In this document: piece after piece, positions 1 through 23,181 of the stretch | Layout: each line of letters begins with the position of its first letter | Numbering within the stretch: position 1 is the first letter of the stretch | Program-made: the position numbers and the translations under genes | Notes under the pieces: model-generated | Told to the model about the DNA's origin: nothing | Database searches by the model: none | What the model saw: the letters and a program-made list of their open reading frames with translations, nothing else | IMG/VR virus record: IMGVR_UViG_3300047557_001894 | Location: 1-54,092 of that record | Length of the DNA stretch: 54,092 nt | DNA from: a virus | Lineage: Duplodnaviria; Caudoviricetes | Reading direction: 5' to 3' (one strand)

Positions 1-723
1 CACATGGAGTGGGCGCCTCCGAGCGTCGGGCAGTGGACCGACTACATGCTGGCGCAGGGCGGCGGCGCGAGCTCCAACATGGTGACCATCGACATCGTGG
101 CCGAGGAGCAGCGCGTCGACGCGGCGTGGGCCGGTGCCTACGCGAAGGCGGCGGGGCTCGTGACCGCGTTCCTGCGCTCCCGCGCGCAGCATCTCCACGC
201 CATGCCCAAGGCGGGCGCCGCGTATCTCGACGCGATGCGCTGGCCTTCGCACCGCTCGTGGTCGAACGCGACCAACGCCTTCGCGAGCTCGATCGTGCAA
301 GGCACCGCGAGCATGTACCGCGACCGTCTGATCGCGGCCTACGTGGGCCAGGGCATCAGCGAAGAGTTCGCGAATTGGACCGCGACCGCTGACCTTCCTG
401 ATCCCGACGAAGTGATGGACGGCAAGATCACCTTCAAGCACGAGCCGCACCGTCTCGATCGCACCCTCGCTCTTTCGAGCTCCATGGCGGCGTCGCTCCT
501 CGGCGACGACAACGCGGGTCGCCGCCAGGTTCGCTCGGACGCCTTCTGGCGCTTCATCGGGCAGATGGCCGACCAGAGCGCGACCGACCTGGTGATCCCC
601 GGCGTCGGGGCGATCTTGCGGGCCGAGACCGCGAAGCCCGAGCTTCGCCTCTCGACTACCCGCGAGGGCAATGCGGCGATCTCGAAGATCGCTCCGCACA
701 TGAAGGCGGCTGGGCGCATCTAG
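1..723 (+). CDS. C-terminal part of MoxR-type AAA+ ATPase (5' truncated by window)
   Basis: Frame open from base 1 (HMEW). WPSHRSW, VGQGISEEF and DLPDPDEV motifs resemble the lid/C-terminal region of AAA ATPases paired with DUF2201-type vWA proteins. Walker motifs lie outside the window. Confidence 0.7.
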   Translation, partial: HMEWAPPSVGQWTDYMLAQGGGASSNMVTIDIVAEEQRVDAAWAGAYAKAAGLVTAFLRSRAQHLHAMPKAGAAYLDAMRWPSHRSWSNATNAFASSIVQGTASMYRDRLIAAYVGQGISEEFANWTATADLPDPDEVMDGKITFKHEPHRLDRTLALSSSMAASLLGDDNAGRRQVRSDAFWRFIGQMADQSATDLVIPGVGAILRAETAKPELRLSTTREGNAAISKIAPHMKAAGRI

Positions 724-784
724 CCCCTGTGCTCTCGGTAGGCCCACGCATGCGCATGCGTGGGCTCTCCGTGAGCACAGGGGC
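723..784 (+). repeat. Intergenic hairpin element, copy 1 (CGGTAG-stem-TCTCCGTGA)
   Basis: Outer arms GCCCCTGTGCTC (723-734) / GAGCACAGGGGC (773-784); CGGTAG 736-741; perfect 24-bp palindrome 742-765; TCTCCGTGAGC from 766. Confidence 0.85.
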
Positions 785-811
785 CACGGTCGGCTCGTGC
801 GGGAGAAAGTC

Positions 812-1726
812 ATGGATGAGGACGACGACTCGATGATTCCGAAGACGCTGAAGGACGCTGCGCGAATGCTCGACGCGAATGGCGGTCCGCGTCAGCGCTT
901 CTTCGAGCAGAAGATGAAGCCGCTGATCGAGCAGCTCGAAGCGTTGGCGAACGCCGAGGGCATCCCGTGGGTGAGCGTCATCGAGCTCGATCGAGTGGCC
1001 GCGAAGGAGGGTGAAGCCATCGCCTCGGTGTTCACCCTCGCCGGACAGCGAGACTCGCACGGCAGGATGATTCCGCCGTTGCACCCCGGCATGGTCCTGG
1101 CCGCGGAGGCGTGCTGCGGCACTCCAGACCCAGACCTCATGCACCTAGGTCGTGTGATGCGCATGAAGGCGAATGAGGGGCTGTGCCCCTGCCCTGCGTG
1201 CACGCAGCGGCGTGAGGAGCCCGACGCCAAGCCCGCAGAGGGCGCGAAGACTTCCTCACCGCTGGTGCAATTCAGCAGTCAGGACATCGCCAGTCTCTTT
1301 GCTGAAGTAGCGGCGGTGCGTGTCGAAGGTGAGGTCGTCACCGGGCGCCCCGCGAAGGGGCCGAAGGAAGAAGCCTTCGAGAAGGAGCTGGTGCCGCTTA
1401 TCGAGAATCTGCGAGCGGCGGCGAAGCAGCACGGTGTCCAAGGCATCTTTGCCTTCGACATCGGGAACGGGGAGCGCATCGAAGAAGGGGTCATCGGTGG
1501 CGGTGTCGTGATGGACATGCAGGACATCACGGAGCCGCGTCTGTTGGCGGCCTCGGGTGTGCTCTTCGGCAATCCAGAGAACTACCCGGTCGCGATGCGG
1601 CAGGTAGTGATCGAGTCAGCCAACTTCATCAAGAAGAAGCGCGACGAGCGCGAACGTGCGGGCAAGGGGGAAACGAAGTTCACGCAGCCGGTCGACCCGA
1701 AGGTCAACACGTTCGGCTCGAACTAG
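812..1726 (+). CDS. Hypothetical protein with two copies of a small alpha/beta repeat domain
   Basis: GGGAG RBS before ATG 812; internal repeats FEQKMKPLIEQLEALANAEGIPW and FEKELVPLIENLRAAAKQHGVQG, separated by a CPCPAC linker. Confidence 0.75.
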   Translation: MDEDDDSMIPKTLKDAARMLDANGGPRQRFFEQKMKPLIEQLEALANAEGIPWVSVIELDRVAAKEGEAIASVFTLAGQRDSHGRMIPPLHPGMVLAAEACCGTPDPDLMHLGRVMRMKANEGLCPCPACTQRREEPDAKPAEGAKTSSPLVQFSSQDIASLFAEVAAVRVEGEVVTGRPAKGPKEEAFEKELVPLIENLRAAAKQHGVQGIFAFDIGNGERIEEGVIGGGVVMDMQDITEPRLLAASGVLFGNPENYPVAMRQVVIESANFIKKKRDERERAGKGETKFTQPVDPKVNTFGSN

Positions 1727-1728
1727 GC

Positions 1729-1786
1729 GCGAGCTCCGACGGTAGAGCGCGCGGCACCAACCACGCGCTTCTCCGTGAGCGCTCGC
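1729..1786 (+). repeat. Intergenic hairpin element, copy 2
   Basis: CGGTAG 1740-1745; inner stem AGCGCG/CGCGCT; TCTCCGTGAGC from 1770; outer GCGAGC/GCTCGC. Confidence 0.85.
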
Positions 1787-1816
1787 GTTGTGCGAGGGCC
1801 TGATCGGGAGAGTGAC

Positions 1817-2305
1817 ATGGACGAGAAGCAGAAGGCAGAAGCACAGATGAAGGCGTGCGGAGCGAAGGTAGAGATGGTCGCCACGCACAAGCAGGCAGCC
1901 ATCGACCACCTGAAGGTGCAGGAGCTCCGTCGTCTGAACGCCGAGATGCTCAACTCGGCTTACGAAGGGCCGGAAGCCATCTTGAAGAAGGCGGCTCTCT
2001 TCAAGGAGAAGCTGGACGATCTGCTCGATCCTTCGCCGCACCAGCAGCCCAAGGTCGCGGGCGACCCGAACGACACCCGCGGGCCGAAGGAAGTCATCTA
2101 CGACACCGAGATCGGTCCGCTGATGGATCAGATCATCGCCTGCTGCGAGAAGAACAGCATCCCCATTCTCGCTCACTTCGAGTTCGACGGGGACATGAGA
2201 TGCACAACCAACCTCGGCCCGTTCGCACACATGGGCGCGAGGGTCGCGGAGGCTGCGCTCGTGGGTGGGCCGCGCGCCATTCTGGCGGTTATGGCGGGGG
2301 GCTAG
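1817..2305 (+). CDS. Hypothetical protein with one copy of the same repeat domain
   Basis: GGGAG RBS, ATG 1817; KEVIYDTEIGPLMDQIIACCEKNSIPILAHF aligns by eye with the repeats in the upstream gene. Confidence 0.75.
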   Translation: MDEKQKAEAQMKACGAKVEMVATHKQAAIDHLKVQELRRLNAEMLNSAYEGPEAILKKAALFKEKLDDLLDPSPHQQPKVAGDPNDTRGPKEVIYDTEIGPLMDQIIACCEKNSIPILAHFEFDGDMRCTTNLGPFAHMGARVAEAALVGGPRAILAVMAGG

Positions 2306-2312
2306 CCCCTCC

Positions 2313-3074
2313 GTGCTCCTAAAGATCACGAACTTTTGCAGCTTAGGCTGCAAGCACTGCATGGAGGACTCGACCATCGCGGGCGAGCACATGACGCGCG
2401 AGACCTTCGAGGCGGCGCTCGATCTCACCGAGCGTGTCGAGGCGAAAGCCTACGCGGCGGGTGCGCCGAGGCATCTGCTCCTCTCGGGTGGCGAGTGCTC
2501 CGAGCACCCTGACTTTCTCGCCTACTTCGAGCGCGCGTTGGAGCGGCGGTTCGTGGTCACGATCATCACCAACGGGATGTGGCTTGGCGACGAAGCGTTG
2601 CGAAACGCGATCGTGCCACGCGCCCTGATGGTGCAAGTGACGAACGATCCGCGCTTCTACCCGAAGGCTCCACCGCGGATCGAGATGCCTCGTCTCGGGT
2701 ACGTGGACTCGCTCACGGCGCTTGTTCCGCTCGGGCGACTGGCTCGCAAGTCGGGGCCACATCCCCTTCCAATCAAGGGCTCTCCGAGCTCGTTCAACGT
2801 CCGCAGCCTCACGCGCAGCCTCGGAGACATCGGCGAAGCCGTTGCCATGATCCGCGTGCGGGCGATGATGGGCAGGGGCGGGCACTGCGCGCCGAGCATC
2901 GGGTGGGACGGCGGCATGTACGCCGGAGAGACGATCAACTGCTTTCGCATCGGAGATGTGCGGAGCACGAACCTGGAGCTGTCGCGGGCCGTTTGCGAGA
3001 TGAAGTGCAACGCCTGCGGCTTGGTCGATGGGCTGCCCGACACGCACAAGGCAGCCATTGGTGAACTCGAATAG
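2313..3074 (+). CDS. Radical SAM enzyme with C-terminal Cys (SPASM/twitch-like) region
   Basis: CxxxCxxC (CSLGCKHC), SGGE motif, ITNG, C-terminal C...C...CNAC. GTG start at 2313 is inferred. Confidence 0.9.
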   Translation: MLLKITNFCSLGCKHCMEDSTIAGEHMTRETFEAALDLTERVEAKAYAAGAPRHLLLSGGECSEHPDFLAYFERALERRFVVTIITNGMWLGDEALRNAIVPRALMVQVTNDPRFYPKAPPRIEMPRLGYVDSLTALVPLGRLARKSGPHPLPIKGSPSSFNVRSLTRSLGDIGEAVAMIRVRAMMGRGGHCAPSIGWDGGMYAGETINCFRIGDVRSTNLELSRAVCEMKCNACGLVDGLPDTHKAAIGELE

Positions 3075-3086
3075 GGAGAAGCAACG

Positions 3087-4439
3087 ATGGGAATGAACCT
3101 GGCGCAAGCGACTAAGAGCCTGCCAGCACAGCAGAAGCTCTCGGTCGCGCGCATGATGATCGCGCACAAGAACCCGTACTTCACCAGCCTCGTGATCCGA
3201 ATGATCTTCCGCGAGGTCGACAAGGAGTCGCAGCCGATGGGCATCGGCGTCTCGCGTCGAGGCGTCGTGTACTGGCGTCGTGACTTCATCGACCATCTCA
3301 CCGCGGAGCAGCTCGCCGTGTTGCTCCTGAACAAGTCGCTGCACGTCCTCTTTCGGCACTCGGACAGGGCGCGAGCGGGGGCCTTCAACCCCGAGGTGTT
3401 CAACGAGGCGGCTGACTGCGAGATCAACGACGATCTCGAAGCCGCTGGATGGACGATGGAGTCCGTCGACGAGAACGGGCAGCCGTGCAGGCTGCTGACA
3501 CCGAGCCACTTCAAGCTGGAAAGCCACAAGTCAGCCGAGTGGTACTACAACGAGATCATGCAGCAGCGGGCGCAGAACCAGGCGCCCCCTGTGAACCACG
3601 GCACCGCCCGTGGCTGCGGTGGTTCGGGCGCTGGCGGGGCGCCTGGCCCTAACGAACCGAGCGGGCAGCCACAGCCGAACGGTGAGGGTGACGCTTCGGG
3701 CAGCGAGCAGGGCGATGGGGGCATGGACGGGCGCTCTGAGGGCGAGCTGGAGGGAATGCGCGATCAAGTCGCGCAGGGCATGAAGAAGCGGCAGGCGGGG
3801 AAGGGCCAGGGGTCCATGCCCCTCGGCTGGCAAGTCTGGAGCGACGAAGAGCTCAAGCCGCCGACGATCCGGTGGCAAGACGAGCTTCGGCAGACCGTGC
3901 GCAACGCTTTCCGAGCGGTCGCCGGGAACGTGGACCGCACGTTCAAGAAGTCGAACCGCAAGCAGGCTGGCCTTGGCTTCGGCTCGGGTCGCCCGGTCCT
4001 TGCGGGGTGGCACAAGCCCACCCCCAACGTGATGATCGCGATTGACACTTCGGGTTCTATGGGCGGGCTGATGCCCGAGATCATGGCCGAAGTGCAGTCC
4101 ATCCTCACGGAGGTGCGCGGCAGCGTGTCCTTCGTGTCCATCGACGCCGAAGTGCAGAGCTCGGGCCGCACGGCTGACTGGCGAGTGATTGCTCGCGAGT
4201 CGAAGGGCGGCGGCGGTACGGACTTCCGCCCACTGTTCGATCACATCGAGAAGATGCCGAAGAACGAGCAGCCCAACGTGGTGATCTTCGCCACCGACGG
4301 CTGCGGCCCCGCGCCGAAGGACGAGCCCGACCCGCACGTCATCTGGCTCCTGTGCGGGGACTACACGATGAAGCCTGCCTCGTGGGGCAAGTACATCAGC
4401 ACCGACAAGAAGACCACGCCCGAGGCGTACTCAGAGTGA
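3087..4439 (+). CDS. Metallopeptidase-like + vWA domain protein (DUF2201-type)
   Basis: N-terminal PYF...LH..RH..R, NEAADCEIND; Gly/Gln-rich linker; MIDAS DTSGS, GGGGTDF, TDG. Confidence 0.9.
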   Translation: MGMNLAQATKSLPAQQKLSVARMMIAHKNPYFTSLVIRMIFREVDKESQPMGIGVSRRGVVYWRRDFIDHLTAEQLAVLLLNKSLHVLFRHSDRARAGAFNPEVFNEAADCEINDDLEAAGWTMESVDENGQPCRLLTPSHFKLESHKSAEWYYNEIMQQRAQNQAPPVNHGTARGCGGSGAGGAPGPNEPSGQPQPNGEGDASGSEQGDGGMDGRSEGELEGMRDQVAQGMKKRQAGKGQGSMPLGWQVWSDEELKPPTIRWQDELRQTVRNAFRAVAGNVDRTFKKSNRKQAGLGFGSGRPVLAGWHKPTPNVMIAIDTSGSMGGLMPEIMAEVQSILTEVRGSVSFVSIDAEVQSSGRTADWRVIARESKGGGGTDFRPLFDHIEKMPKNEQPNVVIFATDGCGPAPKDEPDPHVIWLLCGDYTMKPASWGKYISTDKKTTPEAYSE

Positions 4440-4612
4440 GCGCCGAGACCACGAACAGCAGCGCATCCATGCGCGTGCAGGGGGAGGTCGAGGGCCAGAA
4501 GTACGAAGCCCAGCTCTCCATCAAGACGACGCGGCTCCTCTCGAAGGATGAGCTCGTCGCTCTGATGGCAGAAGTACATCGGGCCATTCGATCGTCGCTG
4601 TCTCAGCGATGA
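4436..4612 (+). CDS. Small hypothetical protein
   Basis: GTGA overlap with upstream stop; 58 codons. Confidence 0.55.
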   Translation: MSAETTNSSASMRVQGEVEGQKYEAQLSIKTTRLLSKDELVALMAEVHRAIRSSLSQR

Positions 4613-4658
4613 CGGTAGGGCACGGGGTTCGCTCCGTGCCTCTCCGTGATCTCTGGAG
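4601..4658 (+). repeat. Intergenic hairpin element, copy 3
   Basis: CGGTAG 4613-4618; inner stem GGCACGG/CCGTGCC; TCTCCGTGA from 4641; the outer stem reaches into the GGAGGA RBS of the next gene. Confidence 0.8.
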
Positions 4659-4663
4659 GAGCC

Positions 4664-5134
4664 ATGAACAAGGCTATTCGTCGCGAGCAGGAGCGCCGTG
4701 CCTACGACCGGCACCAGCGCTCGCGCAAGCCACTGCACTACAAGAGCAAGTACCCTGGCAAGACGCAGGGCAAGCTGTGCTCCTGCGTGATGTGCGGGAA
4801 CCCGCGCAGGCACTTCGGCAAGTCCAAGCGCAAGGAGCTCAACGCGACTCGCGAGAGCCCCGAGCTCTTGCACTTCGAGTCGCTGGACCCGGGGTTTCCC
4901 GACGAGTGCAACATCTGGGATTGCGACTGCGATGACTGCCTCTGGGCGCACCGGCACGACAACGAGCCGTACGTCCAGTCGCGGTTCGAGCACCGGCCCT
5001 TGTCCGCACTCGGAGCATGCGAGCCGTGGCGGTTCATCGAGGAGCTCCGCGTCGCAGAGATTCTGGCGAAGATGGCGCTTCGTCGGACGAAGGCGAAGAT
5101 GGCGCTTCGTCGGACGAAGGCGATGGTGTCGTGA
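4664..5134 (+). CDS. Cys-rich hypothetical protein
   Basis: GGAGGA RBS; CSCVMCGNPRR and CDCDDC motifs. Confidence 0.75.
   Translation: MNKAIRREQERRAYDRHQRSRKPLHYKSKYPGKTQGKLCSCVMCGNPRRHFGKSKRKELNATRESPELLHFESLDPGFPDECNIWDCDCDDCLWAHRHDNEPYVQSRFEHRPLSALGACEPWRFIEELRVAEILAKMALRRTKAKMALRRTKAMVS
5065..5123 (+). repeat. Exact in-frame 27-nt tandem duplication (AKMALRRTK x2)
   Basis: GGCGAAGATGGCGCTTCGTCGGACGAA twice, followed by GGCGA. Confidence 0.95.
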
Positions 5135-5643
5135 GTGTCAGCGACGAGCGCGTGCGCGAGTTGGTGGCTCGCGCTCTACGCACCATCGAGACGTACAACC
5201 GCGGCGAGATCATCCAAGAGCAGGACGCTGCCGTCTCGTTCGTTGGTGGCGTGATGGCTGCGACCCGTGCGTCTGCGAACGACTACCTCCAGCGCACGAC
5301 CTTCATGTCCTCGTCCGAGCAGATGTTGGACACCTACGAGTCCAGACAGCTTGTGTACCTAACCGCACGCGCATGGATCACGGCACCCGAGCAGTGGTTC
5401 GGCGTCCCGTGCATGTGGAACCCGGCCCTCGCAGTGCTCGGGGAGATGCTTCGAGAAGACCCGAGCTGGTCTCTAATGATCCTGTTGCCTGAAGCCGTCA
5501 TGCAGACCGGCTCTCGGATCGGTGGCCCGTTCGTTCCCGAAGAGGAGCGCGGCTACCTCGTACCCGTTGCCCATCGGTGGGCGGACTACCTGCGGCAGAC
5601 GAACCCACGACCCATCACACCCGAGGAAAGAGGAGCGACATGA
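5131..5643 (+). CDS. Hypothetical protein
   Basis: GTGA coupling upstream, ATGA coupling downstream. Confidence 0.7.
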   Translation: MSVSDERVRELVARALRTIETYNRGEIIQEQDAAVSFVGGVMAATRASANDYLQRTTFMSSSEQMLDTYESRQLVYLTARAWITAPEQWFGVPCMWNPALAVLGEMLREDPSWSLMILLPEAVMQTGSRIGGPFVPEEERGYLVPVAHRWADYLRQTNPRPITPEERGAT

Positions 5644-6229: not shown

Positions 6230-6595
6230 ATGGGCGAGTCTCACATTCGTATGGTCGATCCTGCGGCGCTGTACGACAGGATCGGGGAGCTCGAACGCGA
6301 GCTCGAAGCTACGCAGCACGAGCTGGTCCGCGTGCAGGAAAGGCACGCGGACCCCCCGCACAGGTTGCAGCTCGCTGCGTGGGCGAGACCCCTGCCGCAG
6401 TGGGCCGCGGCCGCTTGGGTCGTCTGCATTGCAGGGTGCTTCGCGATCCAGGCGTGGCGTCTGACGGACGGCACGTCGCTCGTGACAGTGCTGATCGCGT
6501 GGGTCCAGTTTTCTGTGGTGGTGCTGGTCGTAGTGCTGATGGCGCTGCTCGCCATCTTCATCGCGGCGTTCGAGTGGGTGAAGGTGAAGCGATGA
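6230..6595 (+). CDS. Membrane protein (coiled coil plus two TM helices)
   Basis: GGAGG RBS; two hydrophobic stretches at the C-terminus. Confidence 0.7.
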   Translation: MGESHIRMVDPAALYDRIGELERELEATQHELVRVQERHADPPHRLQLAAWARPLPQWAAAAWVVCIAGCFAIQAWRLTDGTSLVTVLIAWVQFSVVVLVVVLMALLAIFIAAFEWVKVKR

Positions 6596-6637
6596 ACCAC
6601 CGCAGGAAACGCGGTGGAATGCGAGAGTGATTAGAGC

Positions 6638-6862
6638 ATGGGTATGAGCGAAGCCGAGTTCATGTGCATCGAGTGCGGTCATCGCACTTCGATGCGCCCA
6701 CGTCCCGACGTGATGTACCAGCTCACCCGAGAGCTGCTGGTGCCGTACCCCGACGACATACCCGTCGCTTCGTGCGATGGGTGCGGCGAGACGTACACGA
6801 ACCGAGCCGAGGACGAGGCGATCCGCGCCTCGTTGCTTGCGAAACACGGTGTGCCCGCGTGA
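6638..6862 (+). CDS. Stand-alone YgiT/MqsA-type zinc finger
   Basis: CIECG...IPVASCDGCGETY pattern; no HTH attached. Confidence 0.65.
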   Translation: MGMSEAEFMCIECGHRTSMRPRPDVMYQLTRELLVPYPDDIPVASCDGCGETYTNRAEDEAIRASLLAKHGVPA

Positions 6863-6884
6863 TCGAGAAAGGAATCCCCTGACC

Positions 6885-7157
6885 ATGAGCGACATTGCAG
6901 AGACGCTTTCGCCGCTGGAGCAGCGCGTCGCTGACTACATCGAGACCCACTACAACCTGTCGCTGACCCGCGGGGGCGTAATGAACGTCCTGGCTCTCGG
7001 TAGGTCGTACCGCATGGAGCGCGGAGACGACGTGTTCACCATGTCGATGCGCTTCGACGAGAACGACGAAGCGGCAGCGATCGAGTGGGTCGACAGCGCG
7101 CAGGCGAAGGAAGCGATGCGCGAGATGTTCGGAGCCGACAAGGGCGACGAAGAGTAG
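6885..7157 (+). CDS. Hypothetical protein
   Basis: AAGGA upstream, ATG 6885, high GC3. Confidence 0.7.
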   Translation: MSDIAETLSPLEQRVADYIETHYNLSLTRGGVMNVLALGRSYRMERGDDVFTMSMRFDENDEAAAIEWVDSAQAKEAMREMFGADKGDEE

Positions 7158-7218
7158 TCACCGGACGCGGGGGGCCGCGCACAGAGAACGTACGAAAGAG
7201 AAACTGGAGAAGCGAAGC

Positions 7219-8079
7219 ATGGACATCATCGCAACGGATAAGCAGGGCAGCACTGGCTCGATCACCTACTGGTCCCTCTCGGGGGCCGTGAACTACAGCA
7301 AGCTCGAAGCAGCGTGGGTCGCGCAGGGGTTGAACCCGCAGCTCCTCCCGCCGCGCACCAGTCCGAAGACTGCTCTGCGCCGCGCCATGGACGGTCTCGT
7401 GTCCGGGCAGAGCCAGATGGTGAAGGCCGGGTCCGCGCCGGGGTGGCTCGGGTTCTTCCAGCGCGAGACCACTGGCGGGCGTCCGAACTTCCCGATGGTG
7501 GTCGAGGCGTGCTTGAACGCGGACCCCACCAAAGACCCCGTGATCCGTACCCCTGACGGATCGCCAGTGCCCGAAGCCATCGAAGATTCGGTGACGATCT
7601 TGTACTCGAACGAGCTCAAGAACGTCCACCACGACGACCTGGGCACCTGGCTCGTGAGCACGGCGCGTCGCCTGATGGCAGTGCGCTTGCGCGAGTCGGG
7701 CGGCATCTACTTCATCCCCTCCGCGGGCGGGCTCGCGGAGTGGCAGCAGGTTGCCTCGGTCCTGCACAAGGCTACGGCGTGCACGATCCAAGAGGTGCCT
7801 GCGATGCACTCTCGGGAAGCGGCGAGGGCTGTCCTCGAAGGCATCACGAACGAGGTGAACGCCTACGTCGAGCAGATCGACGCGGAGCTCGGCAAGGTGG
7901 GCGTCCGAGCGCTGGAGAGCCGAGAGGCGTCCATCACTGCCTACGCTCGCAAGATCAGCATGTTCGAGGAGGTCATCGGGTCGAAGCTCGATGGTCTTCG
8001 GGGGGCCTTGAACGGGCTCGAAACCAAGGTCGCGCACGCGAAGCTGACCGCCATCGCGGTTGCTGAAGACGCGGCATGA
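7219..8079 (+). CDS. Conserved hypothetical protein (DUF6744/DUF3150-like)
   Basis: YWSL...LLP..SP..ALRRA N-terminus, LRESGGIYFIP motif, helical C-terminus. Family assignment is from memory. Confidence 0.5.
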   Translation: MDIIATDKQGSTGSITYWSLSGAVNYSKLEAAWVAQGLNPQLLPPRTSPKTALRRAMDGLVSGQSQMVKAGSAPGWLGFFQRETTGGRPNFPMVVEACLNADPTKDPVIRTPDGSPVPEAIEDSVTILYSNELKNVHHDDLGTWLVSTARRLMAVRLRESGGIYFIPSAGGLAEWQQVASVLHKATACTIQEVPAMHSREAARAVLEGITNEVNAYVEQIDAELGKVGVRALESREASITAYARKISMFEEVIGSKLDGLRGALNGLETKVAHAKLTAIAVAEDAA

Positions 8080-8753
8080 TGATCGACCCGCCGAATGAGT
8101 GGATCGAACTGCTTGGGGACGGCGACAGTAGATGCGGCGTCCTCAGCAGCGCCAGTAAATCCGGCGTCCTCAGCAGCGACTACGCGCTCCTCACGGAGTC
8201 GGGCCTCGATCCTTTCAAGATGGCTGGGATCGAGCTGCTTCGCGCAGCCAAACGAACTGAGCGCGCGTACGCGGTGGAGTACGCGCGCTTCGCGTCCGCG
8301 ATCTTCACAAGGTTGACGGGAGTGTGGCGGTGGCGGTTCGACAACTGCGCCTACGCTGGCGCCGATCGAGGTGACATACCGGGCATCCACGGAGCGCTCT
8401 ACGTCCCTCCGTTCGCAGCGGTCTGGTACCTGCGCGGCAGCGGACAGGCGTATTGGGGTCAGTGCTACATCGAGGGCAACATCAGCTCGGTGGACAAAGA
8501 TGGGTGCGACCTGATGATGGGCGCGTCCGAGGCAGTCCGCGTGCAGATGGCCAGCGCTATCAGCGATAAAGAGCCTTGGCCCACGGGAGCTTTGCCACTC
8601 GTCGGCCCAGGCTCAGTGTGTGCGGAGCTGAGCAGTATCGCGGACGTAGATCAGCCCGCTAATCTCGATCCGGCGACCCTGATCGAGTGGACTGTTCGCG
8701 TCGTCGACAAGCTGCACACCAGGGCGAGCATCGTCGCCGCCGTCACCGAGTGA
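8076..8753 (+). CDS. W-x10-R array member 1
   Basis: ATGA coupling; C-terminus WTVRVVDKLHTRASI. Confidence 0.75.
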   Translation: MMIDPPNEWIELLGDGDSRCGVLSSASKSGVLSSDYALLTESGLDPFKMAGIELLRAAKRTERAYAVEYARFASAIFTRLTGVWRWRFDNCAYAGADRGDIPGIHGALYVPPFAAVWYLRGSGQAYWGQCYIEGNISSVDKDGCDLMMGASEAVRVQMASAISDKEPWPTGALPLVGPGSVCAELSSIADVDQPANLDPATLIEWTVRVVDKLHTRASIVAAVTE

Positions 8754-9187
8754 CCGTGGCGAAGCGAAACCGCACCCCGGAGTGGTGGTCCGCGCCGCGG
8801 GATGGGCTCGACTTCATCACGGCAGCGTGTTGGACCGACGCCTATCAAGAGCTCCGATCGCCTTACCGCAACGGCGATGAGGCGATTCGGGTGCTTGCGA
8901 CGGCGAAGTTTACTATCCGCCTCAACCCCGGTATTCACTTGTACGCGGGCCTCAATCGAGATTTTCCAATCTCGCTCAATTTGGAGTTCGACGAGCACGG
9001 CGAGCGCGAATACGTCGTCCGCGTTGGGTCGTTCTCCAGTCAGCTACGGGGGCTCATCTTCGCGATTGGGGGATCAGGATTCCCCATCCCAAACAACCGA
9101 GCGCACCCACGCACGAAGAGAGCGTGGGTGCAGCAATGCCTTGAGTCCTTCGTCGTGCGCAAAGCCATCCGAGAGGTCACCGAATGA
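8750..9187 (+). CDS. W-x10-R array member 2
   Basis: GTGA coupling; C-terminus WVQQCLESFVVRKAI. Confidence 0.75.
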   Translation: MTVAKRNRTPEWWSAPRDGLDFITAACWTDAYQELRSPYRNGDEAIRVLATAKFTIRLNPGIHLYAGLNRDFPISLNLEFDEHGEREYVVRVGSFSSQLRGLIFAIGGSGFPIPNNRAHPRTKRAWVQQCLESFVVRKAIREVTE

Positions 9188-9615
9188 ACCGCAACGCCAA
9201 AGCCATGATCCGTCACATCCTCAAAACCACCGCGCGGAACGCCGAAGACACTTCGCAGTATCGAGAGCAGTCCATCACCCGTGTCTTGTGCAAGGGCGGC
9301 GAGATTAGGCTGCCCGGTGGGGATGACGCGACGTTCTTCAACACGCTGCCCTGTGGGCACCCGGATCAGAAGGACAAGGCCAAGCTCGACTTCTGGAAGG
9401 ACTCGGGGATGGTCGTTTACAACGGCTGTCAGCCGGATTCCTGCTGCCACAAGCTGATGCGGGTGACGGACTGCGAGAAGGCGCGCGCGTTCGTCTCGGG
9501 GCTCACCGGGATCGACATGCCCCCCATCAACGCCAACCCCCGGCGGCAGCTCCAGTGGGTGAAAGGGTTGCAGGAAAACCACGCAGTACGTTGCGTAGCG
9601 AAAGACCGTGGGTAG
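9184..9615 (+). CDS. W-x10-R array member 3
   Basis: ATGA coupling; C-terminus WVKGLQENHAVRCVA. Confidence 0.75.
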   Translation: MNRNAKAMIRHILKTTARNAEDTSQYREQSITRVLCKGGEIRLPGGDDATFFNTLPCGHPDQKDKAKLDFWKDSGMVVYNGCQPDSCCHKLMRVTDCEKARAFVSGLTGIDMPPINANPRRQLQWVKGLQENHAVRCVAKDRG

Positions 9616-10069
9616 TCGCGGACGTGGGCCGCGGCCCTGGACTCCCGTTTGGCACGCTGGCTTGAGCGCTCGGGCGATTGAGATGGTCAGCATCCGATCG
9701 AGAGACCTCATGCAGAACGCGAAGCGCCGAATCTCCGGCGTCCCTCTCGGGAGAATCACCACCTACTCGGTAGAGTCCGTGAGCATCGCCCTCATGGGGT
9801 ATCCGACATCGCGAGGGGCGGTGCAGAACGGGCTGATGTGCTTGGGGCGGCGCATCGATTCCCCGATCACCGCGCTCCTATGCACGGACATGGAGGCGAT
9901 GCTCGACGGCATTGCTAACGCGACGGGCATGCCGCGATTCGTCTTCCCCGTCGGGCAGCGGCCCGGTGTGAACTTGCATCGGTGGTTGGTGCGCGCGGAG
10001 GCAGAAGCCTGTCGCAGGCTCATGCTGCGTCGAGTTCTGGCTGCGCAGCCAACCGACTTCCCCTGGTGA
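9608..10069 (+). CDS. W-x10-R array member 4
   Basis: Overlapping GTG start; C-terminus WLVRAEAEACRRLML. Confidence 0.7.
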   Translation: MGSRGRGPRPWTPVWHAGLSARAIEMVSIRSRDLMQNAKRRISGVPLGRITTYSVESVSIALMGYPTSRGAVQNGLMCLGRRIDSPITALLCTDMEAMLDGIANATGMPRFVFPVGQRPGVNLHRWLVRAEAEACRRLMLRRVLAAQPTDFPW

Positions 10070-10073
10070 CGAG

Positions 10074-10448
10074 ATGACGCTCATCGACAAGTACGCGCTC
10101 CGGCAAGGTGCGCAGGTGAACACAGAGCTCTTGCACAAGGTTGTGCGGTACCTCGTGACGGGTGCTCCCGTGGGCAACGAGTACATGCTGAGCTTGTTCT
10201 CCATCTCGCACGACAAACAGGTTCCTGGCCTAGCTCGCGGGGCGGGGTGGGCCTGGCTGCCGGATCACAACGCCTTCTTTCGGTGGCTCTCCGAAGAGTA
10301 CGACCTGCCGAACCCTCCGCAGGGAGCCCGCGCCGCGATTCGCGTGGCGGACGCAGTGGCTTGGATGGAGAAGGTCACCGAAGCGGCAGCGACACGCAGG
10401 GCCATCGTAGCGATGGCACCGGAGGACGAAGCAGATGCCGTACGATGA
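10074..10448 (+). CDS. W-x10-R array member 5
   Basis: C-terminus WMEKVTEAAATRRAI. Confidence 0.75.
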   Translation: MTLIDKYALRQGAQVNTELLHKVVRYLVTGAPVGNEYMLSLFSISHDKQVPGLARGAGWAWLPDHNAFFRWLSEEYDLPNPPQGARAAIRVADAVAWMEKVTEAAATRRAIVAMAPEDEADAVR

Positions 10449-10881
10449 ATCGCAGACTCCTCTGCGGCTGATCCCATACGTGGAGACTAATGGCATGCCC
10501 CTACTGTGGAATGCTTGCGCGTCGGTGCGCGTGATCGGCGTACGGATGCAGGCGCACTACTCACTCAACCTGACCTGCTTCGACGTGGGGTGGAACAGGA
10601 AGCCCCGTATTGACGACGAGGAATACGTGGCGTCGCTCGGGCTGACGGTCGATGACAGCCACAGCGTGCCCGCGAGCAGCTTGGCGAAGTTCGCACCCGA
10701 AGCAGCGCGCGTGCTCGGAATCGAGTGGTGCGTCCCTGAGTGGAATCCCGAGTGGACTAAGTGGTCCGACGAGATGCAGTCCTGGTTCCTCGCTTACTTC
10801 GAGGCTAGGAACACGAACCTCGCTCTGATGGGGTTCGAGATCGAGCCAGACAGCTCTTCGTACGGCGGTCCTGGGCTATGA
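10435..10881 (+). CDS. W-x10-R array member 6 (R replaced by N)
   Basis: GGAGG RBS; C-terminus WFLAYFEARNTNLALMG. Confidence 0.75.
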   Translation: MPYDESQTPLRLIPYVETNGMPLLWNACASVRVIGVRMQAHYSLNLTCFDVGWNRKPRIDDEEYVASLGLTVDDSHSVPASSLAKFAPEAARVLGIEWCVPEWNPEWTKWSDEMQSWFLAYFEARNTNLALMGFEIEPDSSSYGGPGL

Positions 10882-11258
10882 AACCGAAGGATGAGCCTAA
10901 CTACGAGAAGCTGCTCCCGATGCCCTTCAGCTCCTTCTCATACTACACCCGCGAGTGGGACATCGAGTTCGGGGTGAAGTGCGTTCTCAGCGAACGCGCT
11001 CCAGCGCCGTCGTGGATGCACTGCATCGACAAGTCGCGCAGGAGCGTTCTCTACTATCGAGACGGCCGAGACCGCGTGGACTTCGCCAACGCTTGTGCGC
11101 GAGCACACGGTCTCGATATCCCGCTGCTCACCGAGGAAGACCTAGCGCCCTGCAACAGGCAGGTCTTCCTAGAGTGGATGGGCAGCTACTTCGATCAGGT
11201 GCGGGCTCGATACGTCATCATGGGTGCAGACACGTCCACCACGAACGGAGACGAGTGA
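10878..11258 (+). CDS. W-x10-R array member 7
   Basis: ATGA coupling; C-terminus WMGSYFDQVRARYVIMG. Confidence 0.78.
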   Translation: MKPKDEPNYEKLLPMPFSSFSYYTREWDIEFGVKCVLSERAPAPSWMHCIDKSRRSVLYYRDGRDRVDFANACARAHGLDIPLLTEEDLAPCNRQVFLEWMGSYFDQVRARYVIMGADTSTTNGDE

Positions 11259-11620
11259 TGCTCGTGCTACCGCTGCCTGCCGCCGACTACACGGCGTTCC
11301 CGCTGAGCACTGACCTGTCCTTCGCTATGAAGGCTTTGGGCAGGCACGCACGCATCCCGTTGGGATTGTTTCACTGCGTGCCCAATATTGCGATCCGCGT
11401 AACCTCGCGCGAAGATCAGGCAGCGGCACTCATGCAGTGCGCAAACGCGCACGGCGTAGTGTGCGAAGCCTTGGAGAGCGCCTGGCTGCCGCCGTTCCGC
11501 CTAAACGATCCGCACCCCTCGGTTGCGGAAGCGACGAAGCTGGAGCAGTGGCTCGTCAACTACTTCACGCAAGTACAAGTACGGTACGTGGTGCGGGGGG
11601 CGACAGACGACGCGCGTTGA
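11258..11620 (+). CDS. W-x10-R array member 8
   Basis: TGATG coupling; C-terminus WLVNYFTQVQVRYVVRG. Confidence 0.78.
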   Translation: MLVLPLPAADYTAFPLSTDLSFAMKALGRHARIPLGLFHCVPNIAIRVTSREDQAAALMQCANAHGVVCEALESAWLPPFRLNDPHPSVAEATKLEQWLVNYFTQVQVRYVVRGATDDAR

Positions 11621-11645
11621 CGTGTTGGGGGGTGCGTGGTACGAA
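11617..11645 (+). promoter_or_regulatory. Putative sigma70-type promoter for the phage sigma gene
   Basis: TTGACG (11617-22), 17-nt spacer, TG extended -10, TACGAA (11640-45); the final T of the -10 is missing. Confidence 0.4.
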
Positions 11646-11672
11646 AGGAAAGACTGCGAAAGAGGTAGGCCA

Positions 11673-12242
11673 GTGCGACAGAATGACAGGGAAAACTACG
11701 ATCCGGCTGAGCTAAAACAGATGGTAACGATCGCTGGTCAGGCCAGCAAAAAGGTCGTCTCGATGGTGCCCTGGCTGTGCAGCGACGATCTCGCTCAGGC
11801 AGCCATCCTGGCGATGTGGCTGGCGCAGGATGACTTCGACGGACGTGGTTCGTGGCAGGGGTTCATGCTCCGCGTCGCGATCCGTGCGTGCGCCCGAGAG
11901 GCTCGCCATCGCATGTCTCCGGTGTCGGGAGACGTTTCGCGAGTAGCGCCTCTCAAGGGTTTGCGCGGGGTGGAGTACGAAGACCACGGCTCGACCGAGC
12001 CCGCGCAGCACGAGCAAGTCTCGAAGACCCGCCTGTCGCGTGCGGTGCGGGGGCGTGTCGTTGGGTTGCTGTCCGACAGCGACGCGGTGTTCATCCTCGC
12101 ATACCAAGGGCACGAGCTCTCGACCGAGGACGCTGCCGAAGCGTTCGGCATGACGCAGGACGCGGTGAAGGCGCGCAGCTACCGGACGCGCAAGCGTCTG
12201 CGCGAAGACCCGGTTTTGAGGGCGCTGTGGACTCACAGCTAG
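11673..12242 (+). CDS. ECF-type sigma-70 family RNA polymerase sigma factor
   Basis: Region 2 DDLAQAAILAMW...FDGRGSWQGFMLRVA; region 4 LSTEDAAEAFGMTQDAVKARSYRTRKRLR; AGAGGT RBS before GTG 11673. Confidence 0.88.
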   Translation: MRQNDRENYDPAELKQMVTIAGQASKKVVSMVPWLCSDDLAQAAILAMWLAQDDFDGRGSWQGFMLRVAIRACAREARHRMSPVSGDVSRVAPLKGLRGVEYEDHGSTEPAQHEQVSKTRLSRAVRGRVVGLLSDSDAVFILAYQGHELSTEDAAEAFGMTQDAVKARSYRTRKRLREDPVLRALWTHS

Positions 12243-12286
12243 ACCCATTGGAGTTCGAGTCCTCGCTCCGTGATGGGAGCAGCCCC

Positions 12287-12718
12287 ATGTCCTACTTCGG
12301 CGCGTACTGCCCAGCCACCGCGACTCTCTCCAACGCGACGGTGGATCACGTAGAGCGAATCGTAGCGAGAATGTTCGACGGCCAGGACATCTTCATCCTC
12401 ACCGCGTGGCCGGTGTTCGAGCTCCAGCATCCCAGGTTCGAGCCTGGGACTGCCACCGAAGTGATGCGCGAGCGCTACGGGGTGAATCTCACGGTCGTGG
12501 GGTACGGATGGGCCGACTATCGCGGCGATGCGGGTACGGTCCGCTTCGACATCGACGCCATCCGTAAGATGGTCGACCGCTCTCGCGAAGAAAACCCGTG
12601 GTTTCATTACCGGCCTACGCCGAAGCGCCTCACCAAGAGGTTTGTCACGGCGTATTGCTGGGCTCTTTATGAGGCTGCGCGCATTCGGCGTGCCCTGATG
12701 GGGGTGTCCGATGAGTAG
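12287..12718 (+). CDS. W-x10-R array member 9 (W replaced by Y)
   Basis: GGGAG RBS; C-terminus YCWALYEAARIRRALMG. Confidence 0.72.
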   Translation: MSYFGAYCPATATLSNATVDHVERIVARMFDGQDIFILTAWPVFELQHPRFEPGTATEVMRERYGVNLTVVGYGWADYRGDAGTVRFDIDAIRKMVDRSREENPWFHYRPTPKRLTKRFVTAYCWALYEAARIRRALMGVSDE

Positions 12719-12965
12719 CTCGGAGGATCAAGCCTTCGAGGCAGCGACCGGAGACTTCATCGACGCGATCCGAGCAGAGATGACGGCCCAAGGGCTCACG
12801 TACACCGAGGTCGCGAAGCGCATGGGGACCGACCGGAGCATGGTGTCTCGCACCTTGGACAAGGACGCTGGCAGCAAGCAGGGCCCTACGCTCTTGACCT
12901 TGGTGAAGATGGCTCAGGCGGTCGGTGCGAAGCTGCGCGTCTCCGTGGTACGGGAGCACACATGA
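12711..12965 (+). CDS. XRE-family HTH transcriptional regulator
   Basis: GLTYTEVAKRMGTDRSMVSR...PTLLTLVKMAQAVG. Confidence 0.88.
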   Translation: MSSSEDQAFEAATGDFIDAIRAEMTAQGLTYTEVAKRMGTDRSMVSRTLDKDAGSKQGPTLLTLVKMAQAVGAKLRVSVVREHT

Positions 12966-13612
12966 AGATTCGCTACGAAGTCGTGCCCTGCGCGAAGATT
13001 CGCAGGCAGAGCCGCAACCCGAACCAGATGACCGCGGAGGAGTTCGCGCTCCTGCGGGCCTCGTTCAAGCAGTTCGGCTTCCTCGACCCGCTGCTGGTGT
13101 TCGAGCGGCCCGATGGGGAGTTCGAGCTGCTCGACGGGCATCACCGTTTGGACGCAGCAATCGCGGAGGGGTTTACGGAGCTTCCCTGCGTCATCACCGA
13201 CAAGCGGTCGAAGGATGCGGTGGACGCGATCCAGCTCGCGATGAACCGTAACCGGGGCCGCGTGCGCCTGGACATCGCGGAGCAGATTCTCCGAGAGCTG
13301 CGCGAGGAGGGCTGGGGCATCGAAGAGATGGCCGCCACCGGGTTCTCGGAGGCTGAGATCAACGACATGCTGCTGGAGGCCGACAAAGAGGCCGACAAGG
13401 CGGCGAAGTCCAAGCCCAAGAGCATCGGCGACGTGCTCGGGGAATCGGGCGCGGATAGGCCGTGGACCTTGGAGCTCAAGTTCACCACGCAAGCCGAGCT
13501 CACCGAGGTCAAGCGCGCGCTCAAGAAGGCGTCGGGCGGGGCCAAGGACGAGTCGCTGGGAGTGCTGCACCTGCTCAGGATGCAGAAGGAGGAAGAGGAA
13601 GATGCCGTTTAG
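12962..13612 (+). CDS. ParB/Srx N-terminal domain protein
   Basis: NPNQM...LRASFKQFGFLDPLLV...LLDGHHR. Confidence 0.85.
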   Translation: MKIRYEVVPCAKIRRQSRNPNQMTAEEFALLRASFKQFGFLDPLLVFERPDGEFELLDGHHRLDAAIAEGFTELPCVITDKRSKDAVDAIQLAMNRNRGRVRLDIAEQILRELREEGWGIEEMAATGFSEAEINDMLLEADKEADKAAKSKPKSIGDVLGESGADRPWTLELKFTTQAELTEVKRALKKASGGAKDESLGVLHLLRMQKEEEEDAV

Positions 13613-13925
13613 TCAAAAGCCCCCTGCGAACCCCAAGAAGGTTCGCAAGCACCTGGACGAGCTCGAAGTCCGCATGGCTAAGGAGGGCTTCGTCAACCCG
13701 TCGCGGGTCGCCGAGATTATGACCCTCGGCAAGCCCACCGTGTATCGGTGGATGCAGCAGGGCCACGTCGCGAAGATGGAGTGCCGCCAGCGAGTCTTCA
13801 TGGACTTGAAGACCCTGCGCACCTTCCTGCGAGACCCGCTGATGAGCGACCGTATCGAGAAGTTCGCTGCGGACCTGATCGCGGAGCACGAAGCGGAGGG
13901 CTCCGATGAGCCCTCCATGGAGTAG
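13602..13925 (+). CDS. Excisionase/MerR-like HTH DNA-binding protein
   Basis: FVNPSRVAEIMTLGKPTVYRWMQQG. Confidence 0.7.
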   Translation: MPFSQKPPANPKKVRKHLDELEVRMAKEGFVNPSRVAEIMTLGKPTVYRWMQQGHVAKMECRQRVFMDLKTLRTFLRDPLMSDRIEKFAADLIAEHEAEGSDEPSME

Positions 13926-13927
13926 CC

Positions 13928-14164
13928 ATGGATCAAGTGAACATGCGGCTTGTGCTCACCCTCGTGTTCGTGGGGTGGCCCGGCTTCTCGATCCTGTCTT
14001 CGCTCGCCAAGTCCCGGTACGACGGGCTCAGCGAAGGCGCACGACTGACCTTCTGGGGCGGGCTCTGGTATCGCACCAGGCAAGTGTGCAGCCTGCTCTC
14101 TTGGGGGTGCTTCGCCGCCCTGGTGCTCAGGGTGGTGTGGCTCGTGGCCCGGTGGTTCGCATGA
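13928..14164 (+). CDS. Small membrane protein
   Basis: GGAG RBS; two hydrophobic segments; ATGA coupling downstream. Confidence 0.6.
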   Translation: MDQVNMRLVLTLVFVGWPGFSILSSLAKSRYDGLSEGARLTFWGGLWYRTRQVCSLLSWGCFAALVLRVVWLVARWFA

Positions 14165-14775
14165 GTCGAGTACAGAAGGGCGAGCGCGTCGCCATCCAAG
14201 AGTTCCATCCGACCGACCGAAGGATCAGCGCGATTCACACAGGTGTCGTGAAGAAGGCTGGCGCCAACGGAGCTCAGGTGCAGTTCGATGATCGGGTGAA
14301 GTTCCCGAGAGAGGTGTGGGTGGTCGACTCACGGCTGCACTTCGTTGTTCGAGAGGGCGACACGGAGCACGCACCGATTCTCTCGAAGACACGCGCACCA
14401 CGCAGTTTTGCGTCGAGCATTGCCAAGCAACAGATCGAACCGAAGACAGAGGAACCGATGGCGAACAAGCCGAGCGCGATGAACGGGGATGCCTTGGACC
14501 GCTTGATGAACTCGGGGATCGACCCGCTCAAGCTCTGGGAAGACCTGGGCACGAGGATCGCGGGGTCGATGACGCAAGAGCTGGCGTCGGCGAAAGCCGA
14601 TGTCGCCAAGGCTACAGAAGAGAAAGTCATCGCAGACAAGCTCGTGAACGACGCCGTGGTCTCTCTCCGCAACGCGGAGACCATGGCAACCGCTGCGCGG
14701 CAGCAGCTCTACGACGCAGAGAACCGACTCGCTGACGTGGAGACGAAGATGGATCGCTTGCGAGCCGTAAGGTGA
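14161..14775 (+). CDS. Hypothetical protein (SH3-like N-terminus, coiled-coil C-terminus)
   Basis: KGERVAI...GVV...AQVQFD...WV beta pattern; heptad-rich C-terminus. Confidence 0.65.
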   Translation: MSRVQKGERVAIQEFHPTDRRISAIHTGVVKKAGANGAQVQFDDRVKFPREVWVVDSRLHFVVREGDTEHAPILSKTRAPRSFASSIAKQQIEPKTEEPMANKPSAMNGDALDRLMNSGIDPLKLWEDLGTRIAGSMTQELASAKADVAKATEEKVIADKLVNDAVVSLRNAETMATAARQQLYDAENRLADVETKMDRLRAVR

Positions 14776-15407
14776 CGTTCGACGAGCTGCCTGCCGATCA
14801 ACAGGAGCTAGTCAGCCGCTACCTTGCGGCCTGGCTGACGTACATCGACCCCGCAGTACCCATGAACCACGAGTCGGGAGTCAGGGCTGCTCAAGTCTTC
14901 GCACAGATGAGCGAGCAAGCGCAGCTCGTTGCGCGGAAGATCAAGTGGGAACGTCGAGCGATCCTCACACTCGCGAAGGGGGTCGATAGCCTGACGTACG
15001 AAGAGCTGCTGCCGGAGGAGCAGGACCGGCTAGACAGAGCGCTGAGTCTCGCGACCGAATATCACGCAGACGTGGGAGACCTCAGCAGCGTCTCTGCTGA
15101 GTGGCACGCCTGCTGGAGGCTAATGTCGGAAGAGGAGCGCACGATATACAGCCACCTGTGGCGAGCGCGGCTAATCGCTCAGGGGGGTGACATGACGTAC
15201 GAAGAGCTGCCCGACGATCGCAAGCAGATCGTCGACGAGTTCGTGGCCGAGCTCTGGGTCTACTGGAGCCTGCCGTTCGGTGATCCGAGAGAGCGGCTCG
15301 CATTTCGACGATGGGTCGCCGCTCACAGCCTGATGACCGAAGAAGAGCGTACGATCGGAGCGCACATACTCCAGACGCGCAGGGCCGCGCGCGATCCGTT
15401 GGAATGA
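14772..15407 (+). CDS. Protein with three tandem ~65-70 aa helical repeats (T[FY][DE]EL)
   Basis: TFDELP, TYEELL and TYEELP units, each followed by M[ST]E...R. Confidence 0.8.
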   Translation: MTFDELPADQQELVSRYLAAWLTYIDPAVPMNHESGVRAAQVFAQMSEQAQLVARKIKWERRAILTLAKGVDSLTYEELLPEEQDRLDRALSLATEYHADVGDLSSVSAEWHACWRLMSEEERTIYSHLWRARLIAQGGDMTYEELPDDRKQIVDEFVAELWVYWSLPFGDPRERLAFRRWVAAHSLMTEEERTIGAHILQTRRAARDPLE

Positions 15408-22470: not shown

Positions 22471-22546
22471 GGGACCGTAGCTCAATTGGTTAGAGCCCCC
22501 GGCTGTGGACCGGGGAGTCAGGGTTCGAGCCCCTGCGGCCCCACCA
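22471..22546 (+). tRNA. tRNA-His (GUG)
   Basis: Acceptor GGGACCG/CGGCCCC (one A-C mismatch); D arm GCTC/GAGC; anticodon stem CCCGG/CCGGG with loop CTGTGGA; T arm CAGGG-TTCGAGC-CCCTG; ends ACCA. Confidence 0.93.
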
Positions 22547-22746: not shown

Positions 22747-23181
22747 ATGAAGAAGTGGAGCGAGATTCGCGAGGGTACTTACGGCATCGAGACTGTCCTG
22801 CTCCGGCGGCTAGCAGACGCAGCCGCCGCCGCTGGCGAGGATGCGTTGGAGCAGAGCATCAAGGTCGACGACCAGACCCAGGTGGCGAAGGAAGTCGCGT
22901 CGGCTCTGCTCGGCGCGCACGGTGAGATGGGCGCCCTCATGGTTGTCGGCGCGATCCTCGCGACGATTCAAGAGTCGTCAGACACCAAGCTCGGTGAGCT
23001 GCTCGGCACCAAGCCGGACGGGACAGTGAACGAGCTGAGCCCCGCGCGGGACTTCGACGCGGCCCACCACGCGACGATGGAAGCCTTGAGCGGCCCCGCG
23101 TTCCACCTCGTGCAGAACATCTGGTCCGTGCTGCTCGTGCATCACCAGGCCAAGGCTGTCGCGGCGATCAGCGAGGAGTGA
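22747..23181 (+). CDS. Hypothetical protein
   Basis: 144 codons, high GC3, coupled to the polymerase gene. Confidence 0.7.
   Translation: MKKWSEIREGTYGIETVLLRRLADAAAAAGEDALEQSIKVDDQTQVAKEVASALLGAHGEMGALMVVGAILATIQESSDTKLGELLGTKPDGTVNELSPARDFDAAHHATMEALSGPAFHLVQNIWSVLLVHHQAKAVAAISEE

Follow-up and report, generated by a model that had tools for sequence, protein, structure and literature searches.

The record IMGVR_UViG_3300047557_001894, a linear stretch of phage DNA of 54,092 b with about 63% G+C and a CheckV completeness of 56% (all of it is meant where we write of the window), carries between positions 8076 and 12718 an array of nine small genes, g1 to g9, whose products have a constant C-terminal element, an amphipathic helix, joined to highly diversified remainders. 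The nine open reading frames (ORFs), and the C-terminal strings quoted for them in a preliminary description made from the sequence, were all found where that description had placed them: g1–g8 are eight small plus-strand ORFs over 8076–11620 and g9 lies at 12287–12718, with a phage sigma factor gene between them. The family defined by the helix motif is restricted to one phage lineage, and in this phage it fills a variable accessory slot between the gene for a DUF6744 protein and the sigma gene. The explanation we favour, which in our judgement stands an even chance of being right, is that of a family private to this lineage and amplified in tandem, in which the C-terminal helix is under constraint and the rest diversifies fast; its members are probably early host-interaction proteins.

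Conservation of the C-terminal helix

The helix follows the consensus W-(hydrophobic)-x2-(hydrophobic)2-[DE]-x4-R-x2-[ILV], and the residue counts first reported for it are exact: W at position 0 in 8/9 proteins, D or E at +6 in 7/9, R at +11 in 8/9, I, L or V at +14 in 8/9, and G at +16 in g6–g9. When the last 45 aa of the nine proteins were searched by coordinate ascent, with no preset register, for the highest-scoring ungapped block of 17 residues, the result was the register chosen by the earlier reader, with a sum-of-pairs score of 544. In 200 shuffles the same search gave a mean of -71 (sd 34, max 31), and the motif is also significant against other C-termini of the same phage, since 544 was reached by none of 300 sets of nine picked at random from 62 other ORFs (mean -29, sd 51, max 124). 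Position-specific scoring matrices (PSSMs) built with one group left out were scanned along whole proteins, comprising the nine and two orthologues (P0014 and P0015, introduced below), with 1613 decoys for comparison. The top-scoring position was the same register in 11/11 sequences. No decoy scored as high as g1, g2, g5, P0014, g7 or g8; the number scoring at least as high was 6/1613 for g6, 9/1613 for g3, 17/1613 for g9, 48/1613 for g4 and 86/1613 for P0015, so that the motif is weakest in g4 and in the g9 type.

A leave-one-out HMMER profile of the 20-aa core was far less sensitive, detecting only g7, g8 and g5 within the window and, against 5.7k decoys, placing only g5/P0014, g7/g8 and (marginally) g2 in the top 8. 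Given this weakness for most members, the motif signal rests on the set and not on single pairs. The window holds no further member, the next-best segment after the nine training sequences reaching 7.1 bits. Compared in pairs, the 17-codon cores have a nucleotide identity of 0.38 at the first codon position and 0.42 at the second, where 0.27 and 0.25 are expected; at the third it is 0.33, equal to expectation. The helix is thus conserved at the protein level and not at the DNA level; no DNA repeats coincide with the motif, and no Rfam family matches at it.

An AlphaFold2 (AF2) model of g7 built from the nine-sequence alignment has a mean predicted local distance difference test score (pLDDT) of 66.6 and a predicted template modelling score of 0.62, with helices at residues 25–37, 63–76 and 94–120. 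Its best-predicted part is residues 61–110 (pLDDT 79–87 per 10-residue block), which takes in helix 63–76, the linker and most of helix 94–120. The g9 model (pLDDT 58.1) likewise has a helix (89–102), a linker and a long helix (117–137). In the alignment, the hydrophobic helix positions (0, 1, 4, 5, 8, 12, 14 and 15) make up about half of the circumference, with R11 in the middle of that hydrophobic face, and judging from this pattern the helix would pack against the rest of the protein and leave E6 and R11 available for a specific contact. Foldseek found no PDB structure matching the g7 model at E <= 1e-3, a VIA-align comparison with 48,161 chains returned generic helical arrangements only (best Z 4.9), and in the ESM Atlas the best score for g7 was 0.86, below the lead threshold, with no usable match for g3.

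Divergence, distribution and the variable slot

Upstream of the W helix, the preliminary description had noted a second helix ending in G/D-[ILVM] and a proline-rich linker. The enrichment of proline in the linker holds (25/225 positions compared to 55/1103 elsewhere, Fisher p 0.001), but the upstream helix is not confirmed as a sequence motif common to the proteins: of 150 control sets of real proteins, 36–43 contained a block as good as the best one in the 47 residues N-terminal to the W helix, and the whole upstream part gave block z values of 0.5–1.4 relative to shuffles. The statement that the N-termini look unrelated is largely correct. Hidden Markov models (HMMs) of the N-terminal parts, built with one group left out, recover no family, the left-out member ranking 47 to 5241 of about 5714 and all 8 groups failing. 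However, g7 and g8 are full-length paralogues (26% identity over 117 aa, E 3e-9), and g6 and g9 have in common a mid-protein stretch, MxxxYxxNLTxxxxGW, of 16 residues with 7 identities. Pairwise scores between N-terminal parts also lie above those of controls (mean z 0.80 compared to 0.01, Mann-Whitney p 1.3e-4, the pairs not being independent); alignment of two-sequence profiles of members with hhalign was uninformative, with probabilities of 1–6%. Because the genes are in tandem, eight of the nine proteins have 121–153 aa, g7 and g8 align over their full length and the N-part scores are shifted, the origin we prefer is that the nine genes are probably diverged paralogues, the alternative that the preliminary description had itself set against its modular interpretation. 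Exchange of modules is no more likely an origin than divergence of tandem duplicates.

Sequencing runs containing this stretch come from 10 studies, with the labels freshwater, riverine, activated sludge and wastewater metagenomes. That the array is not an assembly artefact follows from a 7495-nt contig of a study other than the likely source, which covers 6761–13672 with 8 differences. In contigs of four runs (X4, X6, X7 and X11) we found 21 single-base differences, of which all seven in the DUF6744 gene are synonymous, 12 of the 13 in the array are nonsynonymous (seven in g1, four in codons 29–47 of g6 and one in g9, the sole difference in g7 being synonymous), and one lies in an upstream ORF. 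None of the 21 falls inside a helix core. The difference between array and flank is significant (Fisher p 5e-4) and persists when a six-site cluster in g1 near a contig end is left out (nonsynonymous to synonymous 6:1 compared to 1:7, p 0.01); in the X11 contig alone, the corresponding counts are 0:7 for DUF6744 and 6:0 for the array. That contig (7347–8152) has seven synonymous differences in DUF6744 and, directly past the gene boundary, six nonsynonymous ones within codons 1–16 of g1 before it ends; the DUF6744/g1 junction in it has the look of an abrupt change in conservation or of a recombination breakpoint.

The preliminary description recognised no named family for the array proteins, and our searches of Pfam, PHROGs, NCBIfam and the PDB agree: no array protein of the nine passed the Pfam-A cut-offs, none matched PHROGs v4 at E <= 0.01 (the single match of g7 was at 0.079), NCBIfam gave no useful match among 11 sequences, and the best E in a PDB profile search was 9.6. 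A profile of the family searched against 1.84 billion representative proteins gave nine matches at E <= 1e-3, seven of them being proteins of the window itself or variants that differ by 1–2 substitutions. The other two are P0014, an orthologue of g5 (51% identity over 103 aa), and P0015, an orthologue of g9 (45% over 142 aa). A word-index search found a third, P0018, which is 64% identical to g3. All three keep W0, E6, R11 and an aliphatic residue at +14, and vary at other helix positions. A DUF6744 homologue, P0002, is 92% identical to the copy in the window, and the longest contig is 19,585 b for P0002 and for the three orthologues alike; if the four are on one contig, divergence has gone much further in the array proteins than in the adjacent DUF6744 protein. 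A DNA search with 8076–12718 against 50,697 phage records gave no match, a word-index search with g7 returned its own cluster only, and a genome-contig search with P0006 found none. Among searches for related loci with single proteins, DUF6744 gave one weak locus, and g7, P0015 and P0014 gave none. A literature search found no paper on DUF6744 or on tandem paralogues of phages with anti-defence roles, and none of the papers that it returned on phage-encoded extracytoplasmic function (ECF) sigma factors and anti-sigma factors or on paralogous hypervariable early genes concerned such an array.

With DUF6744 as the anchor, 27 related loci (14 viral and 13 metagenomic, 24–42% identity) were compared with the window, DUF6744 homologues having been found at 92% to 27% identity. 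Where there is sufficient DNA, the gene order in the relatives is DUF6744, sigma, ParB-like, small helix-turn-helix (HTH) and helicase, and the block of DUF6744, ECF-type sigma, ParB-like, excisionase-like HTH and helicase genes is common to loci L003–L017 and to the window at 7219–15000. A sigma match, and hence a distance from DUF6744 to sigma, was available for 14 of 28 loci (among which L017 duplicates L007 and L025 duplicates L010). This distance is 26–57 nt in five loci, 724 nt in one, about 1.6 kb in five, 2.1 kb in one and 5.2–6.3 kb in two; in the window it is 3594 nt. The slot genes of the relatives are other orphans, Pfam finding nothing on seven of them or on two orthologues, and the slots of L013 and L015 hold larger genes with no internal paralogy. 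BLASTP and HMM searches of the 28 related loci with the nine proteins and the helix gave nothing at E <= 0.01 (best HMM E 0.38–0.82), and the family profile matched 0/5 related phage records, three of which are complete genomes of 85–100 kb. When the PSSM was scanned over the seven slot genes, the two best-scoring segments did not occupy equivalent positions, and 11 and 26 of the 1423 decoys, respectively, scored as high. As the relatives keep DUF6744, sigma and ParB-like genes without the array, it is not an obligatory partner of that block.

Several further features of these loci may be recorded. A look-alike C-terminus at 8404–8910 of L004 was rejected, as 201/1423 decoys scored as high. 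At the end of another related locus (L005, 15884–16442) are overlapping ORFs of low complexity, rich in W/S or V/G repeats. The three complete relatives carry direct terminal repeats. Compared to the relatives, g9 and the small HTH_3 gene that follows it (12287–12965) form a two-gene insertion between the sigma and ParB-like genes, in a layout that recalls toxin-antitoxin or acr-aca pairs.

Origin and possible role of the array

Under the explanation we favour, repeated tandem duplication in the slot between DUF6744 and sigma would have produced nine small accessory genes related by common descent. Selection would have held the amphipathic C-terminal helix constant, with the proline-rich linker before it, and the helix may hold together, as its structural keystone, a small scaffold made largely of helices by packing back on the preceding helix, to which the conserved W, E and R may add a shared contact surface. 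The N-terminal two thirds would be a specificity surface, diversifying quickly, such that each paralogue could bind or inhibit, stoichiometrically, a host target of its own. The proteins would then be anti-defence or host-takeover factors, presumably made early from the transcription unit of the sigma gene. We propose a role in host interaction because the genes are small, orphan and coupled, lie in a variable slot, carry polymorphisms that alter amino acids and have an HTH gene attached to one of them.

Several observations weigh against this explanation. Both AF2 models are of low overall confidence (66.6 and 58.1), and the N-terminal parts cannot be shown to descend from one ancestor, the leave-out HMMs failing and no shared upstream block rising above shuffles or controls. 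The Cys/His cluster of g3 is found in that protein and not in the others. The polymorphisms are few, several come from single contigs at a depth of 2–4, and six lie within 68 nt of a contig end; moreover, 12/13 nonsynonymous differences is not significantly above the 75% expected under neutrality (p 0.13), with which it is compatible, and the data thus demonstrate relaxed constraint and do not prove positive selection. That P0002 and the three orthologues share one contig is read solely from the equal size of 19,585 b. Finally, 'anti-defence' is drawn purely from context, and carries most of the uncertainty.

An alternative, which we consider doubtful, is that the proteins are modular adaptors or effectors, in which unrelated N-terminal domains are joined to one docking helix for a common hub, such as the phage sigma factor or host RNA polymerase, the upstream von Willebrand factor A (vWA)/AAA system, a host protease or the capsid. 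The N-terminal parts are indeed not recognisably related as a family, the Cys/His cluster occurs in g3 alone, g1 is 80–100 aa longer than the other members, and the polar E6 and R11 of an otherwise hydrophobic helix are kept in the orthologues while their neighbours change. However, no partner has been identified, and the relatives have DUF6744, sigma and ParB-like genes without any motif protein; the full-length kinship of g7 and g8, with faint collinear similarity in other pairs, favours divergence over domain shuffling, and there is no DNA-level similarity at the junctions such as would mark recent recombination. A packaging signal in particular is unlikely, since the genes sit with early and replication genes and not with structural ones. 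Complex prediction with the phage sigma factor (9-row alignment) and g9 (11-row) gave a score of 0.01, which is neither for nor against binding. That the helix is specifically a docking signal, plugging varied N-terminal 'warheads' into one host or phage hub through an interface of W, E and R, we think unlikely; if true, such a docking-helix arsenal would represent a modular architecture of a new kind, serving phage counter-defence or host takeover, with N-terminal parts under arms-race selection. Self-association, with the paralogues forming homo- or hetero-oligomers through a helical hairpin or bundle, is in our view distinctly unlikely. Conserved hydrophobic positions covering about half of the helix surface, the long predicted helices (21–27 residues) and translational coupling, which is common for subunits of one complex, would all suit it, but the hydrophobic stripe is equally expected for packing within a monomer, and although orthologues of g3, g5 and g9 occur in a relative, nothing indicates that the whole set is kept together.

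It is very improbable that the family consists of anti-sigma or sigma-modulating factors, with g9 as the cognate anti-sigma factor and the others as its variants. The usual place for an anti-sigma gene is immediately downstream of the sigma gene, and g9 does lie directly 3' of sigma, 45 nt after its stop, and encodes, as do the other members, a small and predicted largely helical protein. However, 0/9 proteins match an anti-sigma model of Pfam or NCBIfam, inspection of the nine sequences by eye revealed no HxxxCxxC zinc motif, five related loci run directly through DUF6744, sigma and ParB-like with no such protein, and comparison of the family profile with the sigma alignment by hhalign, like that with the DUF6744 alignment, gave a probability in the range 0.1–0.2%. 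Least credible of all is a chance likeness of amphipathic C-terminal helices, or a translated nucleic-acid element such as a coupling or recombination signal. The scores of g4, g9 and g3 in one test (71–86, where the outsider maximum is 97) and the failure of leave-one-out HMMER profiles to find most members would fit chance, but with 0/300 control sets, 11/11 registers, random third codon positions, no repeats and no Rfam match, both versions are close to refuted.

The array can be set beside several known kinds of system. Phage anti-defence islands of the acr-aca type place small, fast-evolving orphan genes beside an HTH regulator gene. The array resembles them in its small orphan genes, in slot content that varies between relatives, in showing little constraint at the population level and in the position of g9, which adjoins and overlaps by 8 nt a gene for an Xre-type HTH protein. 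It differs in that a C-terminal helix is common to its nine paralogues, the genes of known islands being unrelated as a rule, in that its proteins have no homology to any named anti-defence protein, and in that the other eight genes are separated from the HTH_3 gene by sigma. Families that combine constant and variable modules include the polymorphic toxins and the internal proteins of phage T4 with their capsid-targeting sequence. These too have a short constant segment with a diversified remainder, in several copies per genome, but here the constant part is a C-terminal helix of about 17–25 aa and not a trafficking domain or N-terminal signal; none of the genes found is a toxin, immunity or secretion gene, and the neighbourhood is early and replicative rather than structural. 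With ECF sigma/anti-sigma pairs the array shares the gene of a small, predicted helical protein directly 3' of sigma, but no anti-sigma domain is matched, eight members lie upstream, and the sigma genes of relatives have no such neighbour. It is like the lineage-specific tandem paralogue families of large phages in being tandem, coupled, of similar sizes and confined to one lineage, with g7/g8 as a pair; unlike them, all similarity except one helix has been erased, and within-population changes are nearly all amino-acid changing.

Private orphan families are common in phages, and as far as the sequence goes this array is tied to no function so far. If the favoured reading is true, the locus would be a compact natural experiment, in which nine paralogues differ everywhere but in one helix, and a place to seek new phage proteins acting on the host. 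It would allow one to ask what form a minimal conserved scaffold or docking element takes, with W, E and R as clean mutational handles. The junction of DUF6744 and sigma also stands out as an accessory-gene hotspot in a group of freshwater and wastewater phages of 85–100 kb.

Gene layout and surrounding genes

The DUF6744 gene, the nine array genes, the sigma gene and the HTH_3 gene described here are all on the plus strand. The array is preceded by a radical SAM gene, a gene for a DUF2201 metallopeptidase/vWA protein and the DUF6744 gene (7219–8079, 286 aa; Pfam PF20529 at 35.5 bits, cut-off 27), whose stop codon overlaps the start of g1. Within the array, overlaps of 4 nt occur at four junctions (g1/g2, g2/g3, g6/g7 and g7/g8), g3 and g4 overlap by 8 nt and g5 and g6 by 14 nt, and g4 and g5 are separated by a gap of 4 nt. 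The longest protein is that of g1 (8076–8753, 225 aa, helix core 8685–8735), which also has a sub-threshold Pfam match to DUF987 (16.7 bits, cut-off 25). A 27-nt tandem duplication in g1 at 8122–8180 (2.2 copies, 87% matches) encodes a nonapeptide repeat of the GVLSS type, and one of the strain differences, 8122 G>A, affects the first base of this duplication. The ORF of g2 (8750–9187, core 9122–9172) opens at 8687, with a GTG start at 8750 or 8756 and a product of about 143–145 aa; the database gene call, P0011, starts two codons later. The product of g3 (9184–9615, 143 aa, core 9553–9603) has an N-terminal Cys/His cluster (CGH ... C ... CCH ... C), which is fully retained in the orthologue P0018 and may be a zinc site.

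From a GTG at 9608, g4 (9608–10069, core 9980–10030) encodes 153 aa, the database call P0009 beginning 34 codons later and giving 119 aa. It is followed by g5 (10074–10448, 124 aa, core 10359–10409), g6 (10435–10881, 148 aa, core 10780–10830), which has N instead of R at +11, g7 (10878–11258, 126 aa, core 11172–11222) and its full-length paralogue g8 (11255–11620, 121 aa, core 11546–11596). Beyond the sigma gene is g9 (12287–12718, 143 aa, core 12650–12700), with Y at position 0 and W at +2; its ATG start lies 8 nt 3' of GGGAG.

The embedded ECF-type sigma gene (11673–12242), noticed in the preliminary description, is genuine by its matches: Sigma70_r2 passes the Pfam cut-off at 25.4 bits, region 4 (Sigma70_r4) falls slightly below, and PHROGs assigns it to sigma factors at 5.7e-10. 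Its ORF opens at 11523, with a likely GTG start at 11673, 8 nt 3' of AGAGG, and the protein was aligned with eight relatives. The small HTH_3 (Xre-type) regulator gene that overlaps the stop of g9 (12711–12965; Pfam HTH_3 27.3 bits, PHROG transcriptional regulator 8.7e-15) leads into ParB-like, excisionase-like HTH, helicase and family A DNA polymerase genes. A scan of 6500–14500 for promoters and terminators gave counts no higher than the shuffle level.

The MoxR-type AAA gene to which the preliminary description had pointed was not borne out, as the ORFs at 4–723, 797–1726 and 1775–2305, upstream of the radical SAM and vWA genes, are without a Pfam match at E <= 0.01, and 797–1726 is also without a PHROG match. 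The protein encoded at 3087–4439 matches the Pfam DUF2201 putative metallopeptidase and vWA-like domains (94 and 53 bits); its best PHROG, phrog_1314 (6.9e-50), is named 'HNH endonuclease', which conflicts with the Pfam name. A single tRNA-His (GTG) gene lies at 22471–22546 among the replication genes. The family A DNA polymerase (23178–25862) has an N-terminal domain of the uracil-DNA-glycosylase superfamily (residues 69–203), followed by 3'-5' exonuclease and polymerase domains.

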